From Escherichia coli (GTDB taxonomy: Bacteria > Pseudomonadota > Gammaproteobacteria > Enterobacterales > Enterobacteriaceae): 64,000 nt of DNA. This document shows, piece after piece, positions 13,488-57,557 of this stretch. The stretch lies in the NCBI RefSeq assembly GCF_051903065.1, contig NZ_CP178438.1. One strand, 5' to 3'. A model generated the notes under the pieces. It was not told the DNA's origin and did no database searches. It saw only the letters and a list, made by a program, of their open reading frames with translations. Each line of letters opens with the position of its first letter. Positions within the stretch are counted from its first letter, which is position 1. Both the position numbers and the translations under genes were made by a program.

Positions 13488-15730
<2,243 letters not shown>

Positions 15731-28274: not shown

Positions 28275-28820
28275 GTGAAAACATTAATTCTTTTCTCAAC
28301 AAGGGACGGACAAACGCGCGAGATTGCCTCCTACTTGGCTTCGGAACTGAAAGAACTGGGGATCCAGGCGGATGTCGCCAATGTGCACCGCATTGAAGAA
28401 CCACAGTGGGAAAACTACGACCGTGTGGTCATTGGTGCTTCTATTCGCTATGGTCACTACCACTCTGCGTTCCAGGAATTTGTCAAAAAACATGCGACGC
28501 GACTGAATTCGATGCCGAGCGCCTTTTATTCCGTAAACCTGGTGGCGCGCAAACCGGAGAAGCGTACTCCACAGACCAACAGCTACGCGCGGAAGTTTCT
28601 GATGAACTCGCAATGGCGTCCCGATCGCTGCGCGGTCATTGCCGGGGCGCTGCGTTACCCACGTTATCGCTGGTACGACCGTTTTATGATCAAGCTGATT
28701 ATGAAGATGTCAGGCGGTGAAACGGATACGCGCAAAGAAGTTGTCTATACTGATTGGGAGCAGGTGGCGAATTTCGCCCGAGAAATCGCCCATTTAACCG
28801 ACAAACCGACGCTGAAATAA
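28275..28820 (+). CDS. hemG: protoporphyrinogen IX dehydrogenase (menaquinone), flavodoxin-like
   Basis: 181 aa ORF matching HemG. Confidence 0.92.
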
Positions 28821-28845
28821 GCATAAAGAATAAAAAATGCGCGGT

Positions 28846-29066
28846 CAGAAAATTATTTTAAATTTCCTCTTGTCAGGCCGGAATAACTCCCTATAATGCG
28901 CCACCACTGACACGGAACAACGGCAAACACGCCGCCGGGTCAGCGGGGTTCTCCTGAGAATTCCGGCAGAGAAAGCAAAAATAAATGCTTGACTCTGTAG
29001 CGGGAAAGCGTATTATGCACACCCCGCGCCGCTGAGAAAAAGCGAAGCGGCACTGCTCTTTAACAA
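28846..29066 (+). promoter_or_regulatory. rrn tandem promoters P1 and P2 with UP element and boxA antiterminator
   Basis: P1 -35 TTGTCA (28870-28875) and -10 TATAAT (28892-28897) with AT-rich UP element upstream and GC-rich discriminator; P2 -35 TTGACT (28989-28994) and -10 TATTAT (29011-29016); boxA-like TGCTCTTTAACAA at 29054-29066. Confidence 0.85.
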
Positions 29067-29197
29067 TTTATCAGACAATCTGTGTGGGCACTCGAAGATA
29101 CGGATTCTTAACGTCGCAAGACGAAAAATGAATACCAAGTCTCAAGAGTGAACACGTAATTCATTACGAAGTTTAATTCTTTGAGCATCAAACTTTT

Positions 29198-30739
<1,542 letters not shown>

Positions 30740-34371: not shown

Positions 34372-35120
<749 letters not shown>

Positions 35121-35224
35121 ATCAGCATACTTGTCCTTAGCCTTCTGCAGTGACAGCTGGTAGTACAGCGTGCTTCTGGCCAGCCCTGCAGCCTTTAACA
35201 GGTCAGACTGGCAGTGTCCGCACT

Positions 35225-35755
35225 TCAGGTTCTGGATGACTTTCGTTTTTTCTCCAGCTCCTGGCGCTTTTTTTCCAGGAGATGCTCCTGCATGGCTTTC
35301 AGATATGCATTTTCTGCGCGAAGATAACGCAGCTCATTCTTCATCTCTTCCGGCGTCATGTTTGCCTCGTTTTCATGGGTATCATCAGAACGGGTCATGC
35401 TTTTCTCCTTCCTGCGCCTGATAAAGGCCTCATTACCAGATTTGCGGTAGCCTTTTATCCAGTTTTTAACCATGTTGTGGCTGGGAATGTTAAACCGGGC
35501 AGCTACCCGGGGTAGAGACTCAGAATGCCCGAGAGCATAAAGAACCACGCAAAGTTTATCTTCAGGAGAATAGCTACGCTTGTGTCTGCAATCCAGTGCC
35601 TGAGGACCGTGAAGAAGAAAAAGATTAATCCAGTGTGAGAGGCTGGTGTGAGAAAGTTGAAAGAGTTTTGCCGTAGAAATGATGCCTGCATGACCGGCCA
35701 GGTAATGATTTACAGCGGCAAGTTTTACTTCAAATGAATGTTTCATAAACTGCAC
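35225..35755 (-). CDS. IS3-family transposase OrfA (HTH DNA-binding, leucine-zipper-like C-terminus)
   Basis: 176 aa ORF immediately upstream of orfB on same strand; C-terminal EKKRQELEKKRK region contains A-rich putative slippery sequence. Confidence 0.8.
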   Translation of the reverse strand: MQFMKHSFEVKLAAVNHYLAGHAGIISTAKLFQLSHTSLSHWINLFLLHGPQALDCRHKRSYSPEDKLCVVLYALGHSESLPRVAARFNIPSHNMVKNWIKGYRKSGNEAFIRRRKEKSMTRSDDTHENEANMTPEEMKNELRYLRAENAYLKAMQEHLLEKKRQELEKKRKSSRT

Positions 35756-39118: not shown

Positions 39119-39379
39119 ATGATACGTAAGTCAGCTACAGGTGTTATTGTTGCGTTAGCCGTAATCTGGGGTGGTGGCACATGGTACACAGGTACGCAAA
39201 TTCAGCCTGGTGTCGAAAAATTTATTAAAGATTTTAACGATGCTAAAAAGAAAGGTGAACATGCCTACGATATGACGTTAAGTTATAAAAACTTTGACAA
39301 AGGCTTTTTTAATTCCCATTTTCAAATGCAAATTTCATTTGATAACGGTGCACCCGATCTCAATATCAAGCCAGGCCAG
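39119..39379 (+). pseudogene. yihF: yihF 5' fragment (DUF945 protein), interrupted by IS1 after codon 87
   Basis: MIRKSATGVIVALAV... reading frame runs into IS1 end at 39380; continues in same frame after IS1. Confidence 0.85.
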
Positions 39380-39394
39380 GGTAATGACTCCAAC

Positions 39395-39898
39395 TTATTG
39401 ATAGTGTTTTATGTTCAGATAATGCCCGATGACTTTGTCATGCAGCTCCACCGATTTTGAGAACGACAGCGACTTCCGTCCCAGCCGTGCCAGGTGCTGC
39501 CTCAGATTCAGGTTATGCCGCTCAATTCGCTGCGTATATCGCTTGCTGATTACGTGCAGCTTTCCCTTCAGGCGGGATTCATACAGCGGCCAGCCATCCG
39601 TCATCCATATCACCACGTCAAAGGGTGACAGCAGGCTCATAAGACGCCCCAGCGTCGCCATAGTGCGTTCACCGAATACGTGCGCAACAACCGTCTTCCG
39701 GAGCCTGTCATACGCGTAAAACAGCCAGCGCTGGCGCGATTTAGCCCCGACATAGCCCCACTGTTCGTCCATTTCCGCGCAGACGATGACGTCACTGCCC
39801 GGCTGTATGCGCGAGGTTACCGACTGCGGCCTGAGTTTTTTAAGTGACGTAAAATCGTGTTGAGGCCAACGCCCATAATGCGGGCTGTTGCCCGGCAT
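39395..39898 (-). CDS. insB: IS1 InsB (expressed as InsAB' by frameshift)
   Basis: 167 aa ORF matching IS1 InsB. Confidence 0.95.
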
Positions 39899-40092
39899 CC
39901 AACGCCATTCATGGCCATATCAATGATTTTCTGGTGCGTACCGGGTTGAGAAGCGGTGTAAGTGAACTGCAGTTGCCATGTTTTACGGCAGTGAGAGCAG
40001 AGATAGCGCTGATGTCCGGCGGTGCTTTTGCCGTTACGCACCACCCCGTCAGTAGCTGAACAGGAGGGACAGCTGATAGAAACAGAAGCCAC
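39817..40092 (-). CDS. insA: IS1 InsA
   Basis: 91 aa ORF, zinc-finger CPSCSA...CSHC, matches IS1 InsA. Confidence 0.95.
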
Positions 40093-40147
40093 TGGAGCAC
40101 CTCAAAAACACCATCATACACTAAATCAGTAAGTTGGCAGCATCACC

Positions 40148-41326
40148 CCAGGCCAGAAAGTTGTATTTGATGTGGATGTTGAGCACGGTCCGTTGCCCAT
40201 CACAATGTTAATGCATGGTAATGTCATCCCAGCACTGGCAGCGGCAAAAGTGAACTTAGTGAATAATGAACTGACACAACCGCTATTTATCGCCGCGAAA
40301 AATAAATCGCCCGTGGAAGCGACATTGCGATTCGCGTTTGGTGGCTCATTCTCTACGACATTAGATGTTGCCCCTGCAGAGTATGGAAAGTTTTCTTTTG
40401 GTGAGGGCCAGTTTACTTTTAATGGTGATGGTAGTTCATTGTCTAACCTGGATATTGAAGTCAAAGTCGAAGATATTGTTCTGCAATTATCACCAATGAA
40501 CAAAGTAACGGCAAAAAGTTTTACCATTGATTCTCTGACACGATTAGAAGAAAAGAAATTTCCGGTTGGTGAAAGCGAGTCGAAATTTAATCAGGTTAAT
40601 ATTATCAATCAGGGGGAAGACGTTGCCCAAATCGATGCTTTCGTTGCAAAAACCAGGCTGGATCGCGTTAAAGACAAAGATTATATCAATGTCAATCTGA
40701 CCTACGAACTTGATAAGTTAACAAAAGGGAATCAGCAACTCGGTAGTGGTGAGTGGTCATTGATTGCTGAATCTATTGATCCCTCAGCAGTGCGCCAATT
40801 TATCATCCAGTATAACATTGCGATGCAGAAGCAGCTTGCTGCACACCCTGAGTTAGCAAACGATGAAGTTGCTCTGCAAGAAGTGAATGCTGCATTGTTC
40901 AAAGAGTATTTACCGTTATTACAACAAAGTGAGCCGACCATTAAACAACCGGTAAGATGGAAGAACGCACTCGGCGAACTAAATGCCAATCTGGATATCA
41001 GTATTGCCGACCCAGCCAAATCTTCATCATCCACAAACAAAGATATTAAATCGCTCAATTTTGATGTGAAGATACCGCTTAATGTCGCCACAGAAATCGC
41101 AAAACAGCTTAATTTATCTGAAGGAATGGATGCGGAAAAAGCGCAAAAGCAGGCTGATAAACAAATCAGCGGGATGATGACATTAGGTCAGATGTTTCAG
41201 TTAATCACGATTGACAACAATACCGCCTCGCTGCAACTGCGTTATACACCGGGTAAAGTTGTTTTTAACGGACAGGAGATGAGCGAAGAAGAATTTATGT
41301 CTCGTGCCGGACGTTTTGTTCATTAA
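40148..41326 (+). pseudogene. yihF: yihF 3' fragment (DUF945), continues frame of 5' fragment across IS1 and its 9-bp duplication
   Basis: PGQKVVFDVDVEHGPLP... same frame as 39119..39379; ORF track 40172..41326. Confidence 0.85.
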
Positions 41327-41366
41327 AATACTCACTCGCCTCTGCTCATTCAGAGGCGAGCAAAAT

Positions 41367-42299
41367 TTACTTGTCCTGCCGCTGTGATGACATCAACGAC
41401 GTCAGAAGCCGGTCTTTTTCCTGCCACAGTGAGTTCAGCCATTGCTGAAAATGGCGCTTAAAGCTTTTGTCATTGATGTAGTCGCCATGTAACTCATCGG
41501 CAACAGGCTGCAAATCCACATGTACGACAATCCGCGTCAGTTTACCGCTTAACATATCGAAGAACGGCTGACGGTTATTGTCCGGATAACACAGCGTAAC
41601 ATTAAGCAGTTTATCGAATTGTTTACCCAGTACATTTAGCGCCATCGCAATGCCTGCCGCCTTTGGTGGCAACAAGTTTTGAAAAGTGGAGTGGGTTTGC
41701 TGATGTTTTTCTTGCGTGAAACGGGAGCCTTCAACGAAATTGACAATGGTGGTGGGATGCAGGCGAAACTTTTCACAAGAACGCCGAGTGGTTTCAACAT
41801 CTTTACCACGTCGCTCCGGATGACGTAATAAATAAGCGCGGGAATAACGCTTCATAAACGGCATATCCAGCGCCCAGCACGCCAGGCCAAGAAATGGCAC
41901 CCAGGCCAGCTGTTGCTTGAGGAAATATTTATTCATCGGAATGTGCTTACGAAACAGCACGCACAGTACGACAATATCTGCCCAACTACGGTGGTTACAA
42001 ATAAGCAGATACCAGTTCTTCTTACTTAACCCTTCCAGCCCGTGAACTTCCCATTGCAGGTGTGGGTTCAGATGCAGTAATACCGCCAGACCTTCACACC
42101 AGCAATACATCATAAAATCACAAAAACGCGAAACCTTTCGCCAAATGACTGGCACAGGTAGCAATAGTTTTACAATCCCGGCAATGATGATCGGGACGGA
42201 ACAAAAAATAGTGACCAAAATGGTCAATACGATACTCAGCAAAAGGGTTATCGCAGCGAGTATTCTCGTCATAATGAATTTATTCAAAAGGTTAGCCAT
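41367..42299 (-). CDS. yihG: acyltransferase (PlsC/lysophospholipid acyltransferase family) YihG
   Basis: ORF track 41367..42323 trimmed to ATG at 42299 (310 aa); NHRSWADIV acyltransferase motif. Confidence 0.85.
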
Positions 42300-42662
42300 A
42301 GACAGTGCGCTAAAGAAGCGCAAGGCGCAGATTTTAGCAGAAAACGACCCAAATAACGGATGATCCTTAAGGAGAAAAATAATTCATATCTATCCACATT
42401 AGAAAAAATCCCATTATCTCAATTATTAGGGATGGCTTTATTTTTAACTGCATGAAAAACAAAGACAAACATCATGCTGTAAAAAGCATGATAATAAATT
42501 AAAAGCGATGTAAATAATTTATGCACAAAGTTATCCACATGACGATTTGCGAGCGATCCAGAAGATCTACAAAAGATTTTCACGAAAAGCGGTGAAAAAC
42601 TCATGTTTTTATCCTGTCTGTGGCATCCTTTACCCATAATCTGATAAACAGGCACGGACATT

Positions 42663-45449
42663 ATGGTTCAGATCCCCCAAAATCCACTTATCCTTGTAGA
42701 TGGTTCATCTTATCTTTATCGCGCATATCACGCGTTTCCTCCGCTGACTAACAGCGCAGGCGAGCCGACCGGTGCGATGTATGGTGTCCTCAACATGCTG
42801 CGCAGTCTGATCATGCAATATAAACCGACGCATGCAGCGGTGGTCTTTGACGCCAAGGGAAAAACCTTTCGTGATGAACTGTTTGAACATTACAAATCAC
42901 ATCGCCCGCCAATGCCGGACGATCTGCGTGCACAAATCGAACCCTTGCACGCGATGGTTAAAGCGATGGGACTGCCGCTGCTGGCGGTTTCTGGCGTAGA
43001 AGCGGACGACGTTATCGGTACTCTGGCGCGCGAAGCCGAAAAAGCCGGGCGTCCGGTGCTGATCAGCACTGGCGATAAAGATATGGCGCAGCTGGTGACG
43101 CCAAATATTACGCTTATCAATACCATGACGAATACCATCCTCGGACCGGAAGAGGTGATGAATAAGTACGGCGTGCCGCCAGAACTGATCATCGATTTCC
43201 TGGCGCTGATGGGTGACTCCTCTGATAACATTCCTGGCGTACCGGGCGTCGGTGAAAAAACCGCGCAGGCATTGCTGCAAGGTCTTGGCGGGCTGGATAC
43301 GCTGTATGCCGAGCCAGAAAAAATTGCTGGGTTGAGCTTCCGTGGCGCGAAAACAATGGCAGCGAAGCTCGAGCAAAACAAAGAAGTTGCTTATCTCTCA
43401 TACCAGCTGGCGACGATTAAAACCGACGTTGAACTGGAGCTGACCTGTGAACAACTGGAAGTGCAGCAACCGGCAGCGGAAGAGTTGTTGGGGCTGTTCA
43501 AAAAGTATGAGTTCAAACGCTGGACTGCTGATGTCGAAGCGGGCAAATGGTTACAGGCCAAAGGGGCAAAACCCGCCGCGAAGCCACAGGAAACCAGTGT
43601 TGCAGACGAAGCTCCAGAAGTGACGGCAACGGTGATTTCTTATGACAACTACGTCACCATCCTTGATGAAGAAACACTGAAAGCGTGGATTGCGAAGCTG
43701 GAAAAAGCGCCGGTATTTGCATTTGATACCGAAACCGACAGCCTTGATAACATCTCTGCTAACCTGGTCGGGCTTTCTTTTGCTATCGAGCCAGGCGTAG
43801 CGGCATATATTCCGGTTGCTCATGATTATCTTGATGCGCCCGATCAAATCTCTCGCGAGCGTGCACTCGAGTTGCTAAAACCGCTGCTGGAAGATGAAAA
43901 GGCGCTGAAGGTCGGGCAAAACCTGAAATACGATCGCGGTATTCTGGCGAATTACGGCATTGAGCTGCGTGGGATTGCGTTTGATACCATGCTGGAGTCC
44001 TACATTCTCAATAGCGTTGCCGGGCGTCACGATATGGACAGCCTCGCGGAACGTTGGTTGAAGCACAAAACCATCACTTTTGAAGAGATTGCGGGTAAAG
44101 GCAAAAATCAACTGACCTTTAACCAGATTGCCCTCGAAGAGGCCGGACGTTACGCCGCCGAAGATGCGGATGTCACCTTGCAGTTGCATCTGAAAATGTG
44201 GCCAGATCTGCAAAAACACAAAGGGCCGTTGAACGTCTTCGAGAATATCGAAATGCCGCTGGTGCCGGTGCTTTCACGCATTGAACGTAACGGTGTGAAG
44301 ATCGATCCGAAAGTGCTGCACAATCATTCTGAAGAGCTTACCTTGCGTCTGGCTGAGCTGGAAAAGAAAGCGCATGAAATTGCAGGTGAGGAATTTAACC
44401 TTTCTTCCACCAAGCAGTTACAAACCATTCTGTTTGAAAAACAGGGCATTAAACCACTGAAGAAAACGCCGGGTGGCGCGCCGTCAACGTCGGAAGAGGT
44501 ACTGGAAGAACTGGCGCTGGACTATCCGTTGCCAAAAGTGATTCTGGAGTATCGTGGTCTGGCGAAGCTGAAGTCGACTTACACCGACAAGCTGCCGCTG
44601 ATGATCAACCCGAAAACCGGGCGTGTGCATACCTCTTATCACCAGGCAGTAACTGCAACGGGACGTTTATCGTCAACCGATCCTAACCTGCAAAACATTC
44701 CGGTGCGTAACGAAGAAGGTCGTCGTATCCGCCAGGCGTTTATTGCGCCAGAGGATTATGTGATTGTCTCAGCGGACTACTCGCAGATTGAACTGCGCAT
44801 TATGGCGCATCTCTCGCGTGACAAAGGCTTGCTGACCGCATTCGCGGAAGGAAAAGATATCCACCGGGCAACGGCGGCAGAAGTGTTTGGTTTGCCACTG
44901 GAAACCGTCACCAGCGAGCAACGCCGTAGCGCGAAAGCGATCAACTTTGGTCTGATTTATGGCATGAGTGCTTTCGGTCTGGCGCGGCAATTGAACATTC
45001 CACGTAAAGAAGCGCAGAAGTACATGGACCTTTACTTCGAACGCTACCCTGGCGTGCTGGAGTATATGGAACGCACCCGTGCTCAGGCGAAAGAGCAGGG
45101 CTACGTTGAAACGCTGGACGGACGCCGTCTGTATCTGCCGGATATCAAATCCAGCAATGGTGCTCGTCGTGCAGCGGCTGAACGTGCAGCCATTAACGCG
45201 CCAATGCAGGGAACCGCCGCCGACATTATCAAACGGGCGATGATTGCCGTTGATGCGTGGTTACAGGCTGAGCAACCGCGTGTACGTATGATCATGCAGG
45301 TACACGATGAACTGGTATTTGAAGTCCATAAAGATGATGTCGATGCCGTCGCGAAGCAGATTCATCAACTGATGGAAAACTGTACCCGTCTGGATGTGCC
45401 GTTGCTGGTGGAAGTGGGGAGTGGCGAAAACTGGGATCAGGCGCACTAA
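42663..45449 (+). CDS. polA: DNA polymerase I
   Basis: 928 aa ORF, 5'-3' exonuclease, 3'-5' exonuclease and polymerase domains recognisable. Confidence 0.97.
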
Positions 45450-45596
45450 GATTCGCCTGAACATGCCCTTTTTTCGTAAGTAAGCAACATAAGCTGTCAC
45501 GTTTTGTGATGGCTATTAGAAATTCCTATGCAACAACTGAAAAAAAATTACAAAAAGTGCTTTCTGAACTGAACAAAAAAGAGTAAAGTTAGTCGC

Positions 45597-45706
45597 GTAG
45601 GGTACAGAGGTAAGATGTTCTATCTTTCAGACCTTTTACTTCACGTAATCGGATTTGGCTGAATATTTTAGCCGCCCCAGTCAGTAATGACTGGGGCGTT
45701 TTTTAT
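45597..45706 (+). ncRNA. spf: Spot 42 small RNA
   Basis: GTAGGGTACAGAGGTAAGATGTTCTATCTTTCAGACC...GCCGCCCCAGTCAGTAATGACTGGGGCGTTTTTTA matches Spot 42 including terminator. Confidence 0.9.
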
Positions 45707-45728
45707 TGGGCGAAAGAAAAAATCCGCA

Positions 45729-45812
45729 ATGCCTGATGCGCCATGTTTATCAGGCCAACGGTAGAATTGTAATCTATTGAATTTACGGGCCGGATACGCC
45801 ACATCCGGCACA
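45729..45812. repeat. REP palindromic units downstream of spf
   Basis: gcctgatgcgccatgtttatcaggcc and gccggatacgccacatccggca REP-type palindromes. Confidence 0.75.
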
Positions 45813-45830
45813 AGCATTAAGGCAAGAAAA

Positions 45831-46463
45831 TTATTCGCCGTCCTGCGTTTCTTCTACAGGCTGCATCTCGCTAAACCAGGTATCCAGTTTCTGCCGCAGC
45901 TTGTCCACGCCTTGTTTCTTCAACGAAGAAAACGTTTCAACCTGCACATCACCGTTAAACGCCAGTACAGCTTCACGCACCATATTCAATTGCGCTTTAC
46001 GTGCGCCGCTTGCCAGTTTGTCCGCTTTGGTCAGCAACACCAGCACGGCGATATTGCTGTCTACCGCCCACTCAATCATCTGCTGATCCAAATCTTTCAG
46101 CGGATGGCGAATATCCATTAGCACTACCAGACCTTGTAGGCTCTGACGTTTTTCGAGGTACTCGCCGAGCGCGCGCTGCCATTTGCGCTTCATCTCTTCC
46201 GGGACTTCCGCATAACCGTACCCAGGCAAGTCAACCAGACGCTTGCCGTCAGCCACTTCAAACAGGTTGATAAGCTGGGTGCGTCCTGGGGTTTTTGAGG
46301 TACGAGCCAGGCTTTTCTGGTTAGTCAGCGTGTTCAGCGCGCTGGATTTACCTGCGTTGGAACGGCCTGCAAAAGCCACTTCAATTCCGGTATCGGAAGG
46401 TAGGTGGCGAATATCAGGCGCACTCATCACAAAATGCGTCTGTTGATAATTCAAATTAGTCAA
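45831..46463 (-). CDS. engB: ribosome biogenesis GTP-binding protein EngB (YihA)
   Basis: 210 aa ORF with G1 motif GRSNAGKSS. Confidence 0.92.
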
Positions 46464-46733
46464 AGCGGTCGTCTCCGTCAGTCAAAGCTTTGTGGCGATT
46501 ATACCTGAACCATAATAAAAGGCGGATTTTTCGGCGTGAGCGTTGTAAGTAAAAGCCATACGCTTTGTGAGACATTGCCGATAGTCTTTATGCGAAATAG
46601 CAGAGAAAATTCTGCGATGCATGTCAAATAAGCTATATAAATCAGTGAATTGCTTTTATATAAAACTCTGAAAATGTGCAAATACTGATGGCGGTTGATT
46701 GTTTGTTTAAAGCAAAGGCGTAAAGTAACACCC

Positions 46734-46977
46734 ATAGAGCGAGGACGCTAACAGGAACAATGACTCAGGATGAGGGTCAGGAGCGCCAGGAGGCGAAGAC
46801 AGAGGATTGTCAGGAAGACAAACGTCCGGAGACGTAATTAAACGGAAATGGAATCAACACGGATTGTTCCGGCTAATGGAAAAACAGGGTGTGTTGGCGG
46901 CCTGCAAGGATTGTAAGACCCGTTAAGGGTTATGAGTCAGGAAAAAAGGCGACAGAGTAATCTGTCGCCTTTTTTCT
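46734..46977 (+). ncRNA. csrC: CsrC small RNA (CsrA-sequestering)
   Basis: Multiple GGA motifs in AGGA/CAGGA contexts (caggatgagggtcaggagcgccaggaggcg...) ending in hairpin ggcgacagagtaatctgtcgcc plus T-run; location between engB and yihI. Confidence 0.85.
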
Positions 46978-47044
46978 TTGCTTGCTTTCTGTTAGATTCC
47001 GCCGCAAATCTATACTGAATAAAACGGCTAAAAGACGAACCATT

Positions 47045-47551
47045 ATGAAACCATCTTCACCATCACGCAGCAAAGGTCATGCAAAAGCGCGTCGCAAAAC
47101 GCGCGAAGAGCTGAATCAGGAAGCTCGTGACCGCAAGCGTCAGAAAAAACGTCGTGGTCATGCGCCGGGCAGCCGCGCAGCGGGCGGTAACACCACGTCA
47201 GGCAGCAAAGGCCAGAACGCACCAAAAGATCCACGTATTGGCAGTAAAACCCCTATTCCATTGGGCGTGACTGAAAAAGTCACCAAACAGCACAAACCGA
47301 AGAGTGAGAAACCTATGCTTTCACCGCAGGCGGAGTTGGAATTACTGGAAACGGATGAGCGTCTGGATGCGCTGCTGGAACGTCTGGAAGCAGGCGAAAC
47401 CCTGAGTGCCGAAGAGCAATCCTGGGTGGATGCTAAACTGGATCGTATTGATGAGTTGATGCAGAAACTCGGCCTCTCTTATGACGATGACGAAGAAGAG
47501 GAAGAAGACGAGAAGCAAGAAGACATGATGCGTCTGCTGCGGGGCAACTAA
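47045..47551 (+). CDS. yihI: Der GTPase-activating protein YihI
   Basis: ORF track 46982..47551 trimmed to ATG at 47045; basic N-terminus and acidic C-terminus. Confidence 0.85.
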
Positions 47552-47739
47552 CGGATTGCCGCCGTGGGCCTTCCCGTTCTGCTGATAACCCTTCCGGTTA
47601 TATGTTATCTGGTGTGGTTATTCGTTAAACTACAGCGGTTGTCGCGGCGACAAAAGTGGCTGCGCAACCGGCTGATGACCCGAAACGGGCATCCGCCGGT
47701 ACGCCGTAGCCGCCAGAGACGCCATCGGAAGGAGTGAGC

Positions 47740-49113
47740 ATGTCTGTACAGCAAATCGACTGGGATCTGGCCCTGATCCAGAAATATAACTATTCCGGGC
47801 CACGATACACCTCGTACCCGACCGCGCTGGAGTTTTCAGAAGACTTCGGCGAACAGGCGTTTTTACAAGCCGTGGCGCGCTATCCTGAGCGTCCATTATC
47901 TCTCTACGTACATATCCCGTTCTGCCATAAGCTTTGTTACTTCTGCGGCTGCAATAAGATTGTTACTCGCCAGCAGCACAAGGCCGATCAGTATCTGGAC
48001 GCGCTGGAGCAAGAAATCGTCCATCGTGCACCGCTGTTCGCCGGGCGTCACGTCAGCCAATTGCACTGGGGCGGCGGAACGCCGACGTATCTTAATAAAG
48101 CGCAAATCAGCCGCCTGATGAAGCTGCTGCACGAAAACTTCCAGTTCAATGCCGATGCGGAGATTTCGATCGAAGTCGATCCGCGGGAAATCGAACTGGA
48201 TGTACTCGATCATTTACGCGCCGAAGGCTTTAATCGCCTGAGCATGGGCGTGCAGGACTTCAACAAAGAAGTGCAACGTCTGGTTAACCGCGAGCAGGAT
48301 GAAGAGTTTATCTTTGCACTGCTTAACCATGCGCGTGAGATTGGTTTTACCTCCACCAACATCGACCTGATTTACGGCCTGCCGAAACAGACGCCGGAAA
48401 GTTTCGCCTTTACCCTGAAACGTGTGGCGGAGCTGAACCCCGATCGTCTGAGCGTCTTTAACTACGCGCATTTGCCGACCATTTTTGCTGCTCAGCGCAA
48501 AATCAAAGATGCTGACCTGCCGAGTCCGCAGCAAAAACTCGATATCCTGCAGGAAACCATCGCCTTCCTGACGCAATCGGGCTATCAGTTTATCGGTATG
48601 GATCACTTTGCCCGTCCTGATGACGAGCTGGCGGTGGCCCAGCGTGAAGGCGTGCTGCATCGTAACTTCCAGGGCTACACCACTCAGGGCGATACCGATC
48701 TGCTGGGGATGGGCGTTTCCGCCATCAGCATGATTGGCGACTGCTACGCGCAGAACCAGAAAGAGTTGAAACAGTACTATCAGCAAGTGGATGAACAAGG
48801 CAATGCGCTGTGGCGTGGTATTGCGCTAACGCGTGATGACTGTATTCGCCGCGATGTGATTAAGTCGCTCATCTGCAACTTCCGTCTGGATTACGCCCCT
48901 ATTGAGAAACAGTGGGATTTGCACTTCGCTGATTACTTTGCGGAAGATCTCAAGCTGCTCGCCCCGTTAGCAAAAGATGGGCTGGTGGATGTGGATGAGA
49001 AGGGGATTCAGGTGACGGCGAAAGGTCGCTTGCTGATCCGCAACATTTGCATGTGCTTTGATACCTATCTGCGCCAGAAAGCGCGGATGCAGCAGTTCTC
49101 TCGGGTGATTTAA
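47740..49113 (+). CDS. hemN: oxygen-independent coproporphyrinogen III oxidase (radical SAM)
   Basis: ORF track 47734..49113 trimmed to ATG at 47740 (457 aa); CxxxCxxC radical SAM motif (CHKLCYFC). Confidence 0.93.
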   Translation: MSVQQIDWDLALIQKYNYSGPRYTSYPTALEFSEDFGEQAFLQAVARYPERPLSLYVHIPFCHKLCYFCGCNKIVTRQQHKADQYLDALEQEIVHRAPLFAGRHVSQLHWGGGTPTYLNKAQISRLMKLLHENFQFNADAEISIEVDPREIELDVLDHLRAEGFNRLSMGVQDFNKEVQRLVNREQDEEFIFALLNHAREIGFTSTNIDLIYGLPKQTPESFAFTLKRVAELNPDRLSVFNYAHLPTIFAAQRKIKDADLPSPQQKLDILQETIAFLTQSGYQFIGMDHFARPDDELAVAQREGVLHRNFQGYTTQGDTDLLGMGVSAISMIGDCYAQNQKELKQYYQQVDEQGNALWRGIALTRDDCIRRDVIKSLICNFRLDYAPIEKQWDLHFADYFAEDLKLLAPLAKDGLVDVDEKGIQVTAKGRLLIRNICMCFDTYLRQKARMQQFSRVI

Positions 49114-49179
49114 ATAGTGAATGGCGCTTCGTTTACAAAGTAGAAAACGAAAGCGCCATCAATGTGCTGAGAACAAGAT

Positions 49180-49270
49180 TGCCTGATGCGCTACGCTTAT
49201 CAGGCCTACAAAACCTGTTGAAAATATTGCTTTTGTAGGCCGGATAAGGCGTTCACGCCGCATCCGGCAT
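49180..49270. repeat. REP palindromic units (BIME-like) downstream of hemN
   Basis: gcctgatgcgctacgcttatcaggcctac and ggccggataaggcgttcacgccgcatccggca. Confidence 0.8.
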
Positions 49271-49302
49271 GAACAAAGAGCACTTCATCAGCAATCTGAA
49301 AC

Positions 49303-49413
49303 TCAACTAAACAGCCCAATCATCGCGGCACACAGCACGGCAGCAACAGCAGTTTGCGGTGTGTGGCTGTCAACTGCGCCACTCGATACCAGATTAATTA
49401 TTGATTCCAGCAT
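49303..49413 (-). CDS. yshB: small hydrophobic protein (36 aa), YshB-like
   Basis: Minus-strand ATG at 49413 gives MLESIINLVSSGAVDSHTPQTAVAAVLCAAMIGLFS; below ORF-track size cutoff; recalled small gene between hemN and glnG in K-12. Confidence 0.5.
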   Translation of the reverse strand: MLESIINLVSSGAVDSHTPQTAVAAVLCAAMIGLFS

Positions 49414-49524
49414 AATGACTCTCCCCGTTTTCCGGGCAAGATCATACTGAACTTATCGGAACAGTAAAGCGCAAAATACCAGCAATTTGCGCTCAATAAT
49501 CAATCTTTACACACAAGCCGTGAA

Positions 49525-50934
49525 TCACTCCATCCCCAGCTCTTTTAACTTACGCGTCAGGGTGTTACGGCCCCAGCCAAGTAGCCGCGCCGCTTCCTGT
49601 TTATGCCCCTGCGTATGTCGCAACGCGGTCGTCAGTAACGTCCGCTCCAGCTCTGGCTGCGCTTCGGAAAGCAGATTTTGATGACCGGAACGCAGCGCTC
49701 TGTCTGCCCACTGCGCAAGAAGCGTCGCCCAACTGTCCGGTTGCATTTGCGAAGTACTCTCCGCAACCGTTGATTCAAACAGTTCGCCGGGCAAATCCTG
49801 AATCAACACTTCCTGCCCGGCGGCCATCACCGTTAGCCAGCGGCAGGTGTTTTCCAGCTGGCGCACGTTGCCTGGCCACGCCAGACGCGTCAGAGCAGCT
49901 TCGGTTTCCGGATGCAGCAACTTCGCTTCTACGCCCAGTTCGCGCGCGGCAACCTGTAAAAAATGGCGCGCCAGACGGGGAATATCTTCCCGACGCTCAC
50001 GCAGCGGCGGCAGATGAACGCGGATAACGTTCAGGCGGTGGAACAGATCCTCACGGAACTTACCTTCCTGCACCCGCTGTTCGAGATTCTGGTGAGTGGC
50101 AGCGATAATCCGCACATCCACTTTCACCGGCGCATAGCCGCCAACGCGGTAAAACTGGCCGTCTGCCAGCACGCGCAGCAAACGCGTCTGCACATCCAGC
50201 GGCATATCGCCAATTTCATCGAGAAATAATGTACCGCCATCAGCCTGTTCAAAACGCCCCTGACGAATGGTATTCGCGCCGGTAAACGCGCCTTTCTCGT
50301 GACCAAACAGTTCTGATTCGATCAAATCCTTCGGGATAGCCGCCATATTCAGAGCGATAAATGGCGCTTTGGCTCGCGGACTGTGGCGATGCAGGGCATG
50401 AGCGACCAGTTCTTTACCGGTGCCGGATTCGCCGTTAATCAGCACGCTAATAGAAGAACGCGAAAGCCGACCGATAATACGGAACACGTCCTGCATGGCT
50501 GGCGCTTCGCCGATGATATCGGTCGTTGGGCCGTTAAGCTGAACATTACGCGGCTGCTGCTGTTCCTGGTAATGACTGATGGCGCGCTCAACCAGCGCCA
50601 CGGCTTCGTCGATATCAAACGGTTTGGGCAGATAATCAAACGCCCCTTGTTGATAGGCGCTGACGGCAGCATCCAGATCGGAATGTGCGGTCATAATGAT
50701 GACCGGAAGCATCGGATGGCGCTGTTTAATCTGCTTGAGCAGTGCCAGCCCGTCCATTCCCGGCATACGGATATCTGAAAGCAGCACATCCGGCGTTTTG
50801 CTCGCCAGCGCCTCCAGTACCTCCGCGCCGTTCTCAAATGTCGTACAGGTTAAACCCGCTCCAGCGAGCGCACGTTCAAGCACCCAACGGATGGAACTAT
50901 CGTCATCGACTACCCAGACTATCCCTCGTTGCAT
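49525..50934 (-). CDS. glnG: nitrogen regulation response regulator NtrC (sigma54-dependent activator)
   Basis: ORF track 49525..50994 trimmed to ATG at 50934 (469 aa); receiver domain, AAA+ GESGTGKE, C-terminal HTH. Confidence 0.95.
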
Positions 50935-50945
50935 AAACGTCACCT

Positions 50946-51995
50946 TTATTTCCTGATAGGCAGGTAAACCGAGAACTCGGTATGCCCTGGCCAACTGGTA
51001 AATTCAATTTTGCCTGAATGCTGATCAATCAAATTACGAGCGATGGATAAGCCAAGCCCGGTGCCACCTTCGCGGCCGCTGACCATCGGGTAAAACAGCG
51101 TATCCTGCAAATGAGGCGGAATGCCTGGCCCGTTATCTTCCACATCAATCCGCGCCGCCAGCCGATAGCGTTCGCCGTGTAAGGTCAGTTGAAACGCGGT
51201 ACGGGTACGCAGAATGATTTCACCGCCTTCCGGCCCCAGCGCCTGTAGCGCATTGCGCACAATATTCAGCAAGACCTGTTCAATTTGATCCGGGTCGTGC
51301 GCCAGTTCTGGCAGGCTGGGGTCGTAATCACGAATCAACCGCACGTTGTCCGGCAGTTCCATCGACACCAGCGTCACCACGCGTTCAGCTACTTTGTGAA
51401 TACTTTCGGTCACGCGCGTACCGGGCAGCTGCGGCCCCAACAGACGGTCGACCAGATTTCGCAGCCGGTCCGCCTGTTCGATAATCACTTTGGTATATTC
51501 CAGCAGTGACGGGTCAGGTAATGCTTTGCTGAGTAGCTGCGCCGCGCCACGTAAACCGCCAAGCGGATTTTTAATCTCATGTGCCAGGCCACGCACTAAA
51601 TCACGGGCAGCAACTTGTTGAGCATGTTGTAGCTGTTCCTGGCTTAAGCGGCGCTGGTTATCCATCGGCGCCATCTCCAGCAGGATCATGCCGTCCGGCA
51701 TACGCTGGGCCGTCACAGAAAGGATATGCGAGCGCCCGTCGATGACCAGCGTCACTTCGTTATCGGTAAAACCTTGCCCCGCCTCCAGACTTTCTTGCAT
51801 CAGCTCGATATTTAATGAGAAGTAGCTCAACAGTTCCGGTAACGGTGTACCAAACAATTTGCGGGAGCTTTGGGCGAGCAGTTGTTGCGCGGCGGGGTTG
51901 GCGTAATGGATCGCCAGGTTGTCATCGATTAACAAAATACTGTTAATCAGCGAGTTGAGGATCTGCCCAGCATCGGGCTGCGTGCCTGTTGCCAT
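50946..51995 (-). CDS. glnL: nitrogen regulation sensor histidine kinase NtrB
   Basis: 349 aa ORF with H-box HEIKNPL. Confidence 0.95.
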
Positions 51996-52168
51996 AAAGC
52001 AGTCTCCTGAACAGGTTGCACCATTTTAGTGCATTATAGCTTTTTACGGATAAAAAGCGCGAAGCATCAGAGAATTGACGGAGAAAAAAGCCCATGCAGA
52101 GATGGGCTGAAAGTTTCCACGGCAACTAAATCCCGGCGTTGTTGCGCCGGGTAGTACAACTTCAACTA

Positions 52169-53578
52169 TTAGACGCTGTAGTACAGCTCAAACTCTACCG
52201 GATGCGGAGTCATACGCACGCGGTCATCTTCTTCGCGACGCAGAGCGATGTACGCATCGATCGCTTCATCCGTGAACACGCCACCGGCTTTCAGGAACTC
52301 GCGGTCCAGATCCAGCTCGTTCAGTGCTTCTTCCAGAGAGCCTGCAACTTGTGGGATCTCTTTCGCTTCTTCTGGCGGCAGGTCATACAGGTTTTTGTCC
52401 ATGGCTTCGCCCGGATGGATCTTGTTCTTGATACCATCAAGACCGGCCATCAGCAGGGCAGCAAAGCACAGGTACGGGTTAGCCGCCGGATCCGGGAAAC
52501 GTACTTCGATACGACGCGCTTTCGGAGAAGAAACCACTGGAATACGGATAGAAGCAGAACGGTTACGTGCAGAGTAAGCCAGCATTACCGGTGCTTCGTA
52601 GCCCGGGACCAGACGCTTATAAGAGTTGGTGGTCGGGTTTGCCAGGGCGTTAATCGCTTTCGCGTGTTTGATTACGCCGCCAATGTAGTACAGCGCCTGC
52701 TCAGACAGACCAGCGTATTTGTCGCCCGCGAACAGGTTAACGCCGTTTTTAGACAGAGACATGTGGCAGTGCATACCGGAGCCGTTATCACCGAACATCG
52801 GTTTTGGCATAAAGGTCGCGGTTTTACCGAAGCGGTGCGCTACGTTGTGCACAACATATTTGTAGATCTGAATTTCGTCAGCTTTTTTGGTCATGGTATT
52901 GAAGCGGGTAGCCACTTCGTTCTGACCAGCAGTTGCTACTTCGTGGTGATGGGCTTCAACCACCAGACCCATCTGTTCCATCACCAGACACATTTCAGAA
53001 CGAATATCCTGAGCCGAGTCTACCGGCGGAACCGGGAAGTAACCGCCTTTAACTGCCGGACGGTGACCTTTGTTACCACCTTCATATTGGGTGGAGGAGT
53101 TCCATGCGCCTTCGATATCGTCGATAGCAACATGAGAACCGGAGATAGATGATCCGAAACGGATATCATCGAACAGGAAGAATTCAGGTTCTGGCCCGAA
53201 CAGTACGGTGTCGGCAATGCCAGTAGAACGCAGGTAATCTTCAGCGCGCTTCGCGATGGAGCGCGGGTCACGGTCATAGCCTTGCAGGGTGCCAGGTTCA
53301 AGGATGTCGCAACGGATAATCAGGGTGGAGTCGGCGAAGAACGGGTCAATCACTGCGGTGGATGCGTCTGGCATCAGCACCATGTCGGACTCGTTAATGC
53401 CTTTCCAGCCGCCAATCGAGGAGCCGTCAAACATTTTGCCTTCTTCGAAGAATTCGGCATTCACCTGATGAGCAGGGATAGTGACGTGCTGTTCTTTACC
53501 TTTGGTATCGGTGAAGCGCAAATCAACAAACTTCACTTCGTGCTCGTTCAGCATCGTCAGTACGTGTTCAGCGGACAT
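52169..53578 (-). CDS. glnA: glutamine synthetase
   Basis: 469 aa ORF matching GlnA. Confidence 0.97.
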
Positions 53579-53659
53579 ACTTTAACTCTCCTGGATTGGT
53601 CATTGTCGTCGTGGTAACGAAATCTGCAATTATTTTGGCCGTGTCGCCGTAAAAAAGAT

Positions 53660-53800
53660 AAAGCGAAAACTGTGCCAACTTTTAAATTGCCCCTAAAAGG
53701 CGTTATCATGCTTAACATCGTGCAAAAGGGCTGCACCATGATGTGAATGTTGCACCAATATAGTGCTTCAATGGAAACATTAAGCACCATATTGGTGCAA
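53660..53800 (-). promoter_or_regulatory. glnA regulatory region: sigma54 promoter glnAp2 and upstream NtrC enhancer sites
   Basis: Minus-strand TTGGCACAGTTTTCGCT (-24 GG / -12 GC spacing) at about 53662-53679; NtrC-type palindromes TGCACCAATATAGTGC (53751-53766) and GCACCATATTGGTGC (53785-53799). Confidence 0.8.
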
Positions 53801-53950
53801 TGACCTTTGGATAACCCTTTTTATGCTCCGTGAAAGCGATCACAAAGGGACTCTGCAATACTTGTTTGCGGAGGATGTTTGTGATCCTGTTTTGTAGTGC
53901 GATTAATCCGTGTACAATAACGCGCTATTTCTAATGCCTGAGGCAAAGTT

Positions 53951-55774
53951 GTGATCGAAAAATTGCGTAATATCGCCATCATCGCGCACGTAGACCATGG
54001 TAAAACCACCCTGGTAGACAAGCTGCTCCAACAATCCGGTACGTTCGACTCTCGTGCCGAAACCCAAGAGCGCGTGATGGACTCCAACGATTTGGAGAAA
54101 GAGCGTGGGATTACCATCCTCGCGAAAAACACCGCTATCAAATGGAATGATTACCGTATCAACATCGTTGATACCCCGGGGCACGCCGACTTCGGTGGTG
54201 AAGTTGAACGTGTAATGTCCATGGTAGACTCAGTGCTGCTGGTGGTTGACGCATTTGACGGCCCGATGCCGCAAACGCGCTTCGTAACCAAAAAAGCGTT
54301 TGCTTACGGCCTGAAGCCGATTGTTGTTATCAACAAAGTTGACCGCCCTGGCGCGCGTCCTGATTGGGTTGTGGATCAGGTATTCGATCTGTTCGTTAAC
54401 CTCGACGCGACCGACGAGCAGCTGGACTTCCCGATCGTTTACGCTTCTGCGCTGAACGGTATCGCGGGTCTGGACCACGAAGATATGGCGGAAGACATGA
54501 CCCCGCTGTATCAGGCGATTGTTGATCACGTTCCTGCGCCGGACGTTGACCTTGACGGTCCGTTCCAGATGCAGATTTCTCAGCTCGATTACAACAGCTA
54601 TGTTGGCGTTATCGGCATTGGCCGCATCAAGCGCGGTAAAGTGAAGCCGAACCAGCAGGTCACTATCATCGATAGCGAAGGCAAAACCCGCAACGCGAAA
54701 GTCGGTAAAGTGCTGGGCCACCTCGGTCTGGAACGTATCGAAACCGATCTGGCGGAAGCTGGCGATATCGTGGCGATCACGGGCCTGGGCGAACTGAACA
54801 TTTCTGACACCGTTTGCGACACGCAAAACGTTGAAGCGCTGCCGGCACTCTCCGTTGATGAGCCGACCGTTTCTATGTTCTTCTGCGTTAACACCTCGCC
54901 GTTCTGCGGTAAAGAAGGTAAGTTCGTAACGTCTCGTCAGATCCTGGATCGTCTGAACAAAGAACTGGTACACAACGTTGCGCTGCGCGTAGAAGAAACC
55001 GAAGACGCTGATGCGTTCCGCGTTTCTGGTCGTGGCGAACTGCACCTGTCTGTTCTGATCGAAAACATGCGTCGTGAAGGTTTCGAACTGGCGGTATCCC
55101 GTCCGAAAGTTATCTTCCGTGAAATCGACGGTCGTAAACAAGAGCCGTATGAAAACGTGACTCTGGACGTTGAAGAACAGCATCAGGGTTCTGTAATGCA
55201 GGCGCTGGGCGAACGTAAAGGCGACCTGAAAAACATGAATCCAGACGGTAAAGGCCGCGTACGTCTCGACTACGTGATCCCAAGCCGTGGTCTGATTGGC
55301 TTCCGTTCTGAGTTCATGACCATGACTTCCGGTACTGGTCTGCTGTACTCCACCTTCAGCCACTACGACGACGTACGTCCGGGCGAAGTGGGTCAGCGTC
55401 AGAACGGTGTACTGATCTCTAACGGTCAGGGTAAAGCGGTCGCGTTCGCGCTGTTCGGTCTGCAGGATCGCGGTAAGCTGTTCCTCGGTCACGGTGCAGA
55501 AGTTTACGAAGGTCAGATTATCGGTATTCATAGCCGCTCTAACGACCTGACTGTAAACTGCCTGACCGGTAAGAAACTGACCAACATGCGTGCTTCCGGT
55601 ACTGACGAAGCCGTTGTTCTGGTTCCGCCTATCCGCATGACTCTGGAACAAGCTCTGGAGTTCATCGATGATGACGAACTGGTAGAAGTGACTCCGACCT
55701 CTATCCGTATTCGTAAACGTCACCTGACGGAAAACGATCGTCGCCGCGCCAACCGCGCACCGAAAGACGATTAA
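53951..55774 (+). CDS. typA: ribosome-associated translational GTPase BipA/TypA
   Basis: 607 aa ORF, GTG start, EF-G-like GTPase (AHVDHGKTT). Confidence 0.95.
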
Positions 55775-55792
55775 TTTCGTTTTTTAGTTATA

Positions 55793-55825
55793 AAAAACCT
55801 GCCATCGCTGGCAGGTTTTTTTTTA
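55793..55825 (+). terminator. intrinsic terminator after typA
   Basis: aacctgccagcgatggcaggtt hairpin flanked by A-run and T-run. Confidence 0.85.
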
Positions 55826-55990
55826 CCTGTCGTGAGCGCACACCAATGCGAGTATCTCCCTTATAAGTCTGTGATTACGTCAATAGAGAGCTTTGTCACA
55901 ATTATCTGCAAAGTCATACGCCGTTAATTGCTTTCTTTTTTGGCGTAAGCGTAAGATGCTTCATCTGGTTTAAACCAAAAGGATTAAACA

Positions 55991-56701
55991 ATGGCGGAGA
56001 ATCAATCCACCGTAGAAAATGCAAAAGAGAAACTGGATCGGTGGTTGAAAGATGGCATCACCACGCCGGGTGGAAAACTCCCTTCAGAAAGAGAGCTGGG
56101 AGAACTGCTGGGCATTAAACGTATGACGCTGCGCCAGGCGTTGTTGAACCTCGAGGCAGAATCCAAAATCTTCCGTAAAGATCGTAAGGGGTGGTTCGTG
56201 ACCCAGCCGCGATTTAATTACAGTCCGGAGCTGTCGGCGAGCTTTCAGCGGGCCGCAATTGAGCAAGGGCGGGAACCTTCCTGGGGGTTTACCGAGAAAA
56301 ACCGTACCAGCGATATTCCCGAGACGCTCGCGCCACTGATTGCAGTGACACCATCAACTGAACTCTATCGCATCACCGGCTGGGGGGCGCTGGAAGGACA
56401 TAAAGTTTTCTATCACGAAACATATATTAATCCTGAAGTTGCTCCGGGTTTTATTGAACAACTTGAAAACCACTCATTTTCTGCAGTCTGGGAAAAGTGC
56501 TACCAAAAAGAGACGGTAGTAAAAAAATTGATTTTCAAACCCGTCAGAATGCCGGGCGATATCAGCAAGTATCTTGGCGGTTCTGCGGGTATGCCAGCGA
56601 TCTTAATTGAAAAGCATCGCGCCGACCAGCAAGGCAATATTGTCCAGATAGATATTGAATATTGGCGATTTGAGGCCGTAGACCTCATCATTAATCTGTA
56701 G
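55991..56701 (+). CDS. yihL: GntR-family transcriptional regulator YihL (UTRA effector domain)
   Basis: 236 aa ORF with N-terminal GntR-type HTH. Confidence 0.85.
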   Translation: MAENQSTVENAKEKLDRWLKDGITTPGGKLPSERELGELLGIKRMTLRQALLNLEAESKIFRKDRKGWFVTQPRFNYSPELSASFQRAAIEQGREPSWGFTEKNRTSDIPETLAPLIAVTPSTELYRITGWGALEGHKVFYHETYINPEVAPGFIEQLENHSFSAVWEKCYQKETVVKKLIFKPVRMPGDISKYLGGSAGMPAILIEKHRADQQGNIVQIDIEYWRFEAVDLIINL

Positions 56702-56708
56702 GTGTTTT

Positions 56709-56789
56709 ATGGTGACAATAAATAACGCAAGAAAGATTCTACAACGTGTCGACACTCTTCCTCTTTATTTACATGCTTATGCCTTTCAT
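56709..56789 (+). pseudogene. 27-codon 5' stub of a gene (yihM-like by position) truncated by IS1
   Basis: ATG at 56709 opens frame MVTINNARKILQRVDTLPLYLHAYAFH that runs directly into IS1 left end at 56790; identity as yihM is positional inference only. Confidence 0.45.
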
Positions 56790-56844
56790 GGTGATGCTGC
56801 CAACTTACTGATTTAGTGTATGATGGTGTTTTTGAGGTGCTCCA

Positions 56845-57120
56845 GTGGCTTCTGTTTCTATCAGCTGTCCCTCCTGTTCAGCTACTGACGGGGTGGTGCG
56901 TAACGGCAAAAGCACCGCCGGACATCAGCGCTATCTCTGCTCTCACTGCCGTAAAACATGGCAACTGCAGTTCACTTACACCGCTTCTCAACCCGGTACG
57001 CACCAGAAAATCATTGATATGGCCATGAATGGCGTTGGATGCCGGGCAACAGCCCGCATTATGGGCGTTGGCCTCAACACGATTTTACGTCACTTAAAAA
57101 ACTCAGGCCGCAGTCGGTAA
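56845..57120 (+). CDS. insA: IS1 InsA
   Basis: Identical 91 aa protein to copy 1. Confidence 0.95.
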
Positions 57121-57542
57121 CCTCGCGCATACAGCCGGGCAGTGACGTCATCGTCTGCGCGGAAATGGACGAACAGTGGGGCTATGTCGGGGCTAAATCG
57201 CGCCAGCGCTGGCTGTTTTACGCGTATGACAGGCTCCGGAAGACGGTTGTTGCGCACGTATTCGGTGAACGCACTATGGCGACGCTGGGGCGTCTTATGA
57301 GCCTGCTGTCACCCTTTGACGTGGTGATATGGATGACGGATGGCTGGCCGCTGTATGAATCCCGCCTGAAGGGAAAGCTGCACGTAATCAGCAAGCGATA
57401 TACGCAGCGAATTGAGCGGCATAACCTGAATCTGAGGCAGCACCTGGCACGGCTGGGACGGAAGTCGCTGTCGTTCTCAAAATCGGTGGAGCTGCATGAC
57501 AAAGTCATCGGGCATTATCTGAACATAAAACACTATCAATAA
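57039..57542 (+). CDS. insB: IS1 InsB
   Basis: Identical 167 aa protein to copy 1. Confidence 0.95.
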
Positions 57543-57557
57543 GTTGGAGTCATTACC

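Follow-up and report, generated by a model that had tools for sequence, protein, structure and literature searches.

The stretch of DNA analysed here, which we call the window, comprises 64,000 nucleotides (nt) of Escherichia coli (contig NZ_CP178438.1, RefSeq assembly GCF_051903065.1) and carries two copies of the insertion sequence (IS) IS1, in opposite orientations, on either side of a block of genes that includes polA and the glnALG operon. Gene names were transferred from the near-identical sister NZ_AP045789.1 (strain 23CRST027) and complemented by an Rfam scan. The window and 23CRST027 differ by ∼6 substitutions and 5 single-base homopolymer gaps over 64 kb, for which reason we rejected the idea that the window is the 23CRST027 assembly itself and take it to be a sister strain or assembly. 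At the left end of the bracketed region the 5′ fragment of yihF (39119..39379, plus strand, 261 bp; in the sister RefSeq annotation a ‘DUF945 family protein, missing C-terminus’) is cut by IS1 copy 1 (39380..40147, minus), beyond which lies the 3′ fragment of the same gene (40148..41326, plus). There follow yihG, encoding an acyltransferase (41367..42299, minus), polA, encoding DNA polymerase I (42663..45449, plus), spf, the gene for the Spot 42 small RNA (sRNA), with spfP (45587..45705, plus; RF00021, 122.8 bits), yihA/engB, encoding a ribosome-biogenesis GTPase (45831..46463, minus), the csrC sRNA gene (46734..46987, plus; RF00084, 277.9 bits), yihI (47045..47551, plus), hemN (47740..49113, plus), yshB (49303..49413, minus), glnG, glnL and glnA of the glnALG operon (49525..53578, minus), typA/bipA (53951..55774, plus) and yihL, encoding a GntR-family regulator (55991..56701, plus). 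A stub made up of the first 81 nt of yihM (56709..56789, plus) is the left flank of IS1 copy 2 (56790..57557, plus), and the 3′ 431 nt of an MFS transporter gene (57558..57988, plus) are its right flank. An earlier note on this DNA, made from the sequence alone, had named polA, spf, csrC, hemN and glnALG as lying between the copies; sister annotation and Rfam agree with every entry of that list, which was nevertheless incomplete in omitting yihG, yihA/engB, yihI, yshB, typA, yihL and the fragments of yihF and yihM.

Scanned for repeats over its full length, the window gave a single long one, inverted, whose arms (39379-40147 and 56790-57558) are each 769 nt long, 100% complementary and 16,642 nt apart. 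The 769th base of the arms is a chance match in the flanks, and the IS1 elements proper are 768 bp long and exact reverse complements of each other (100% identical); a perfect repeat of 768 bp cannot be chance. On the minus strand, copy 1 has its right inverted repeat (IRR, beginning GGTAATGAC...) on the left and its left inverted repeat (IRL) on the right, while copy 2, on the plus strand, has IRL (GGTGATGCT...) on the left and IRR on the right. These terminal inverted repeats are 23 bp long and imperfect, IRL (GGTGATGCTGCCAACTTACTGAT) and IRR (GGTAATGACTCCAACTTATTGAT) being identical at 18 of 23 positions. The element contains frames for InsA (91 amino acids) and InsB′ (167 amino acids) and a slippery A6C motif (AAAAAAC) at IS position 307, corresponding to window position 57096, and a simulated -1 shift gave an InsAB′ fusion of 232 amino acids, the frameshifting itself being predicted from sequence. 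Pfam matches to PF03811 (1.3e-21), PF12759 (4.7e-31) and PF03400 (2.3e-78) revealed the Zn_ribbon_InsA, HTH_Tnp_IS1 and DDE_Tnp_IS1 domains that characterize the IS1 family, and RefSeq names the same element an ‘IS1-like element IS1A family transposase’. Length, inverted repeats of ∼23 bp, insA/insB′ with A6C, domain content and, at copy 1, a target duplication in the 8-9 bp range are all those of the IS1 family, and on these features both copies can be classed as intact, typical IS1 of the IS1A type. The scan and the reading of the ends also bear out the coordinates from which the earlier note had described two identical, inverted IS1 copies 16.6 kb apart.

We noted that in the sister assembly 23CRST027 (NZ_AP045789.1; L001 5881-6647 and 23290-24056) both IS1 copies are 767 bp long, a run of four G having become three inside insB′ (affected window positions 39647 and 57287), and are annotated as frameshifted pseudogenes. 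Copy 1 in the other sister, 23CRST031, measures 768 bp, and the remaining single-base gaps between the window and 23CRST027 likewise fall in short one-base runs (TT, TTTT). Single-base homopolymer indels are typical of long-read consensus errors, and the 767-bp forms are probably such errors, not true inactivation.

In our reading, which we hold to be very probable, the pair was not produced by an inversion; it goes back to two distinct and ordinary IS1 events in an E. coli lineage rich in IS1. A perfect 9-bp direct repeat, CCAGGCCAG, borders copy 1 at 39371..39379 and 40148..40156, in accordance with the earlier statement that this copy keeps its own duplication, and IS1A target duplications are known to measure 8-9 bp (PMC5009759). 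In the genome of ECNB21-M121 (NZ_CP083585.1), which has 17 differences from the window over 28.4 kb of flanking sequence, yihF is intact, CCAGGCCAG is present a single time and the corresponding span lacks exactly 777 bp (768 + 9). This empty, intact site, taken with the 9-bp duplication, shows copy 1 to be a recent simple IS1 insertion in yihF. IS1A has been found to hop locally, with 23 insertions observed against 5.1 expected within 10 kb and 37 against 25.1 within 50 kb (PMC5009759), and because of this habit copy 1 may derive from copy 2 by a local hop.

IS1 was also observed in or near yihF (DUF945/YdgA family) in 28 genomes, in the same orientation and in several of them with an equal total span. 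The 5′ stubs of yihF measure 927 bp in 2017.06.04CC and 744 bp in NT1F31, compared with 261 bp here. We therefore rejected the copy 1 site as an IS1 hot spot, the other yihF insertions being at different positions, and the exact site is private to the lineage of the window.

The record at copy 2 is of another kind. No direct duplication of 5 to 14 bp is shared by its flanks, and the element joins codon 27 of yihM (nt 81) to the last 431 nt of the MFS transporter gene. The two flanks map to the same strand of the IS-free OSUCMP42NDM (L003) at 20015, which is yihM nt 81, and at 29644, within an MFS gene spanning 28725-30074, and are 9,628 bp apart there; L003 20016-29643 (9,628 bp) is missing from the window. 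The lost DNA held the rest of yihM, yihN, the genes for a DeoR regulator, a sugar kinase, yihU, an aldolase and a zinc (Zn) alcohol dehydrogenase, and, of two MFS transporter genes, one complete and the 5′ two-thirds of the other. Copy 2 is thus a deletion scar, a single IS without duplication whose flanks are collinear but non-adjacent in an IS-free relative, and it is because of this flanking deletion that the duplication is lacking; a duplication marks an insertion event, not an element. An IS without a target duplication arises from adjacent deletion or from IS-by-IS recombination (PMC11708052), and its presence at a collinear deletion junction is the signature of adjacent deletion or of recombination between direct IS copies (PMC11708052, PMC5009759). 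The earlier account of the pair, which described both elements correctly, missed the duplication-less state of copy 2 and the deletion of 9,628 bp, and with them the loss of seven yih sugar-catabolism genes and the truncation of two others, from which loss of the pathway in this strain is predicted. IS1 has thus rearranged the region before, by deletion and not by inversion; the high IS1 load of the lineage, treated below, was likewise overlooked in that account.

The order of the two events can be read from ECNB21-M121, which has an identical copy 2 with identical junctions and lacks copy 1; this comparison shows that the deletion at copy 2 predates copy 1. In the history that we propose, an older IS1 would have entered the 5′ end of yihM and the 9,628 bp to the right of its IRR would have been lost, by IS1-promoted adjacent deletion (intramolecular transposition) or by recombination with a second, directly oriented IS1, leaving a single IS1 without target duplication as copy 2. 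More recently an identical IS1 inserted into yihF, 16.6 kb upstream, in the opposite orientation and with the standard 9-bp duplication, giving copy 1; the segment between them has kept its ancestral orientation, and both copies are valid substrates for a RecA-dependent flip of the 16.6 kb. IS1 was found at ∼37 places per chromosome in 23CRST027 and 23CRST031 and at ∼28 in ECNB21-M121, the median for the same queries being ∼10-11 matching places per genome. The difference between ∼37 and ∼28 places means that IS1 is active in the lineage, and with ∼37 copies the pair is one of several hundred possible IS1 pairs and not special.

Insertions like copy 2 recur at this locus. IS1 in the orientation of copy 2 lies within ∼1.3 kb downstream of yihL in 54 of 5,426 complete E. 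coli genomes. From eight sampled lineages, ECNB21-M121, 2015C-3121, E41, HL15, EC-07, BKQWHE, HS30-1 and EC09, we obtained left junctions, in that order, at yihM nt 81, 80, 505, 222, 222 and 241, in yihN, and at 137. Seven of the eight have no duplication and adjoin deletions with different endpoints (yihR′, yihS′, MFS′, epimerase), and HL15 has its left junction in common with EC-07 and its right junction in common with E41. A single fixed hot spot in yihM with nested deletions, which we considered as an explanation, holds only in part, the junctions being scattered over a hit-prone region. Judging from these junctions, copy 2 belongs to a recurring IS1-driven erosion of the yih sugar-catabolism locus. 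That the repeated independent erosion reflects selection for pathway loss, or a regional IS1 hot spot, and not neutral decay is a tentative suggestion that we find rather doubtful; the yihM-yihS region, with its repeated IS1 scars in other lineages, might still merit population-genomic attention.

The yih cluster adjoining yihL is described as one for sugar (sulfoquinovose-type) catabolism. In IS-free relatives (L003 19935-30951) we observed on the plus strand yihM, yihN, genes for a DeoR regulator and a kinase, yihU, and genes for an aldolase, a Zn alcohol dehydrogenase, two MFS transporters and an aldose 1-epimerase, and the annotation of this interval includes no sulfoquinovosidase or isomerase. 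The gene set is unlike the ompL-yihOPQRSTU/VW of the K-12 yih locus and has the look of an alternative allelic form of the cluster at this position.

Classical IS1-associated adjacent deletions were reportedly described by Reif and Saedler in 1975 in the gal region, and the loss at copy 2 may have come about in this transposase-driven manner. It may also have occurred by RecA-dependent recombination between direct IS1 copies, one at yihM nt 81 and the other in the second MFS gene, an origin to which we give a substantial chance, if one somewhat short of even. The lineage is rich in IS1 and the region has been hit repeatedly, 2015C-3121 having IS1 both in yihM and in the first MFS gene; the combinatorial sharing of junctions seen in HL15, with the left of EC-07 and the right of E41, is easily explained by recombination between two IS; and in the data of Lee et al. 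the partners in most IS-associated deletions are a pre-existing copy and a new one (PMC5009759). Against this, we found no genome in which an IS1 at the MFS endpoint (L003 29644, left flank ...GGATGGTTAT) carries its own target duplication, and adjacent deletion would leave an identical final product, so that sequence does not discriminate between the two mechanisms.

The polA-glnA segment is collinear in one piece with the IS-free OSUCMP42NDM and shares the gene order of K-12. Had a single inversion taken place, one CCAGGCCAG would lie beside each IS1; both still flank copy 1, and it follows that the segment is uninverted. The earlier note had drawn the same conclusion, and it is upheld by the collinearity with OSUCMP42NDM, the K-12 order and the unsplit duplication of copy 1, by which the ancestral state of the published orientation can be checked within the sequence itself. 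Since a crossover within the IS keeps all IS-flank junctions, only linkage across a whole IS1 is diagnostic of inversion, and on this logic we rejected inversion tests that look at junctions only. With A and B denoting the DNA to the left and right of copy 1, C and D that to the left and right of copy 2, and rc the reverse complement, we built as a query for the inverted linkage a chimera of 2,368 bp, A-IS1-rc(C), consisting of the 800 bp left of copy 1, IS1 and, reverse-complemented, the 800 bp left of copy 2; its counterpart rc(B)-IS1-D is redundant and was left unsearched. The chimera was found in none of the 5,426 complete E. coli genomes, there being no place that covered at least 80% of it. 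The parental control A-IS1-B was returned whole, in one piece and at 100% coverage, in 23CRST027 and 23CRST031, and C-IS1-D was whole in 23CRST027, 23CRST031 and ECNB21-M121. Only two genomes of the database have the two-IS configuration, and both are sister strains and uninverted. Collinearity, intact duplication and the complete lack of inverted linkage among the 5,426 genomes all speak against an IS-mediated inversion having already occurred, and on the sequences compared the segment stands in its ancestral orientation.

These results also bear on a one-step origin of the pair by duplicative inversion, in which intramolecular replicative transposition places an inverted copy at the target and inverts the DNA between. 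Two identical inverted copies around a segment, one of them without a direct duplication, do bear a superficial likeness to its product. We nevertheless see hardly any chance of it here: the segment has the orientation that it has in IS-free relatives and in K-12; the 9-bp duplication at copy 1 is direct, where the model predicts inverted repeats shared between the copies; and ECNB21-M121 has copy 2 and its deletion without copy 1 and with the segment in the same orientation. A cross-comparison of the flanks (left flank of copy 1 with the reverse complement of the left flank of copy 2, and likewise for the right flanks) detected no inverted target repeats of the kind that duplicative inversion would leave.

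A second close inverted IS1 pair was seen in 2015C-3121 (L004 20015-28829), where one copy lies in yihM and the other in an MFS gene, with 7.3 kb between them. Each still has its own 9-bp duplication, which means that this pair is uninverted too.

Inverted IS copies can invert the DNA between them, an event that creates no new junctions and is invisible to paired-end short reads (PMC5009759), and in treating identical inverted copies as inversion substrates the earlier note was in line with that paper. An IS1-mediated inversion of 1.49 Mb has been documented in the long-term evolution experiment (Raeside et al. 2014, PMC4173774). The further forecast of that note, a polymorphic inversion in populations, is textbook-plausible and has found no supporting data: none of the 5,426 genomes has the inverted form, both sisters are uninverted, and the two genomes at risk neither confirm nor refute it. 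As a benchmark for the frequency to be expected we took a direct IS1A pair 11.5 kb apart (CP4-6), which recombined in 12 mutation-accumulation lines over ∼2.2 million generations (PMC5009759), and computed from it a rate of ∼5e-6 per generation. By analogy, the 16.6-kb segment would invert at ∼1e-6 to 1e-5 per generation, and a culture grown for tens of generations from one cell would contain ∼1e-4 inverted cells, a rare minority and not a visible polymorphism, which should be detectable by sensitive polymerase chain reaction and would lie beneath ordinary long-read coverage.

Inverting the segment would disrupt no additional gene, as each breakpoint falls in one that is dead already. Throughout the window GC skew is positive, and rrnA reads on the plus strand, so that plus is the leading strand; ∼8.4 kb of the segment is coding sequence co-directional with replication (the yihF 3′ fragment, polA, yihI, hemN, typA and yihL) and ∼5.5 kb is head-on (yihG, yihA, yshB and glnGLA). 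Inversion would swap the two groups, and we see no strong selective reason either way. A reversible flipping of the polA-glnA segment within the population, with consequences for phenotype, strikes us as highly improbable.

The published orientation could still mislead if the source culture were mixed, with at least 1% of each orientation, or truly inverted, and the assembler had chosen or forced the ancestral path, which is the possible assembly ambiguity raised in the earlier note. Perfect inverted repeats of 768 bp are unresolvable by short reads (PMC5009759), and the sister assemblies do carry single-base homopolymer indels. Even so, two independently assembled sisters and the window are all in the ancestral orientation, the benchmark rate of ∼5e-6 per generation predicts only ∼1e-4 inverted cells after tens of generations, and an assembly error that restored exact collinearity and reunited the duplication of copy 1 would be improbable in itself. 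We thus judge a mixed or inverted culture to be unlikely, with only a small probability.

Some observations weigh against the account of two separate events with an uninverted segment, or temper it. Among the genomes compared there is no intermediate that combines IS1 at yihM nt 81 (duplication GCCTTTCAT) with an undeleted cluster; 2015C-3121 comes nearest, its independent IS1 lying one base off, at yihM nt 80, and having its own duplication. For want of an nt-81 intermediate we can only infer that copy 2 arose in two steps, and ‘insertion with deletion’ in a single step, which has been proposed as an IS route (PMC11708052), would be an alternative. The null result for the inverted form says little on the inversion rate because only two genomes carry both copies, and, as the evidence consists of assemblies alone, a minority inverted subpopulation may be present in the source culture.

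Two identical IS1 around a set of genes also recall composite transposons, of which Tn9 has direct and Tn1681 inverted IS1 copies, and the 18.2-kb unit might be imagined as one of the Tn1681 kind that has moved, or could move, as a whole. What speaks for it is that two intact IS1 with functional-looking ends and transposase genes bracket the segment. The unit as a whole has no flanking duplication, its outer flanks being CCAGGCCAG and CAGATCGTA, and all enclosed genes are in their native chromosomal context. A search of the PLSDB plasmid database found no IS1-bounded E. coli copy of the 18.2-kb unit, its matches being mislabelled chromosomes or Salmonella/Citrobacter homologues at ∼84% identity. 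Transposition of IS1-flanked units reportedly drops steeply with length, according to work of Chandler et al. in 1982. With differing outer flanks, a native context and no plasmid copy, the window does not hold a transposon of the Tn9/Tn1681 type, the idea of which we regard as barely credible; the IS1 pair is coincidental and not a moved transposon.

The Salmonella/Citrobacter ‘plasmid’ records returned by this search (NZ_LN868945.1, NZ_CP051374.1, NZ_CP019203.1 and NZ_CP151862.1; 148-426 kb) carry polA-hemN-glnALG-typA at ∼84% identity, and may be mislabelled chromosomal contigs or F-prime-like elements. Several other ‘plasmid’ records, of 4.8-4.9 Mb, are plainly chromosomes.

Elsewhere in the window, Rfam matches at gathering level were obtained for Erse (13842-14093, ubiE-ubiJ region), ES222 (53762-53869, upstream of typA) and STnc370 (55759-55827, at the 3′ end of typA), all of them expected enterobacterial sRNA annotations. 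An IS3-family element annotated as IS1397, with a programmed frameshift, lies at ∼34398-35746 on the minus strand between the rrnA 5S rRNA gene and mobB, and is present in both 23CRST027 and ECNB21-M121. Between fabY and yiiE an open frame of at least 595 codons (62216-64000, plus) runs past the end of the window; in RefSeq it is annotated as two pieces of one frame, a ‘hypothetical protein, incomplete’ and a ‘transposase’ (WP_226156879.1), it is broken by ISKpn26 in ECNB21-M121, and Pfam and NCBIfam scans of it gave no match.

Nothing at this locus departs from known IS1 behaviour, and what we describe is routine insertion-sequence biology that is already known. As a possible substrate for inversion the pair ranks with the hundreds of other IS1 pairs of the genome, and it has little meaning beyond bookkeeping; its practical consequence is that short-read assemblies of the lineage cannot orient the polA-glnA block. 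Compared with Tn9 and Tn1681, the window shares the two intact IS1 around unrelated genes, inverted as in Tn1681, and differs in having no duplication of the whole unit, a native context and no second location. With the documented IS-bounded inversions (PMC4173774, PMC5009759) it shares two identical inverted IS copies on one chromosome, whereas no inversion has occurred here and 16.6 kb is far below the documented sizes. The elements themselves match IS1A of E. coli in their 768 bp, imperfect 23-bp inverted repeats, A6C motif, 232-amino-acid InsAB′, domains and, at copy 1, the 9-bp duplication; nothing notable sets them apart, the duplication of copy 2 alone having been lost owing to the adjoining 9.6-kb deletion. 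The closest parallel to copy 2 is with IS-associated adjacent and IS-by-IS deletions (PMC11708052, PMC5009759): although here the intermediate of the lineage was not found and sequence does not settle which mechanism acted, the window has the same lone IS without duplication and the same collinear second flank kilobases away, and an equal class of scar recurs at the yih locus in other lineages.

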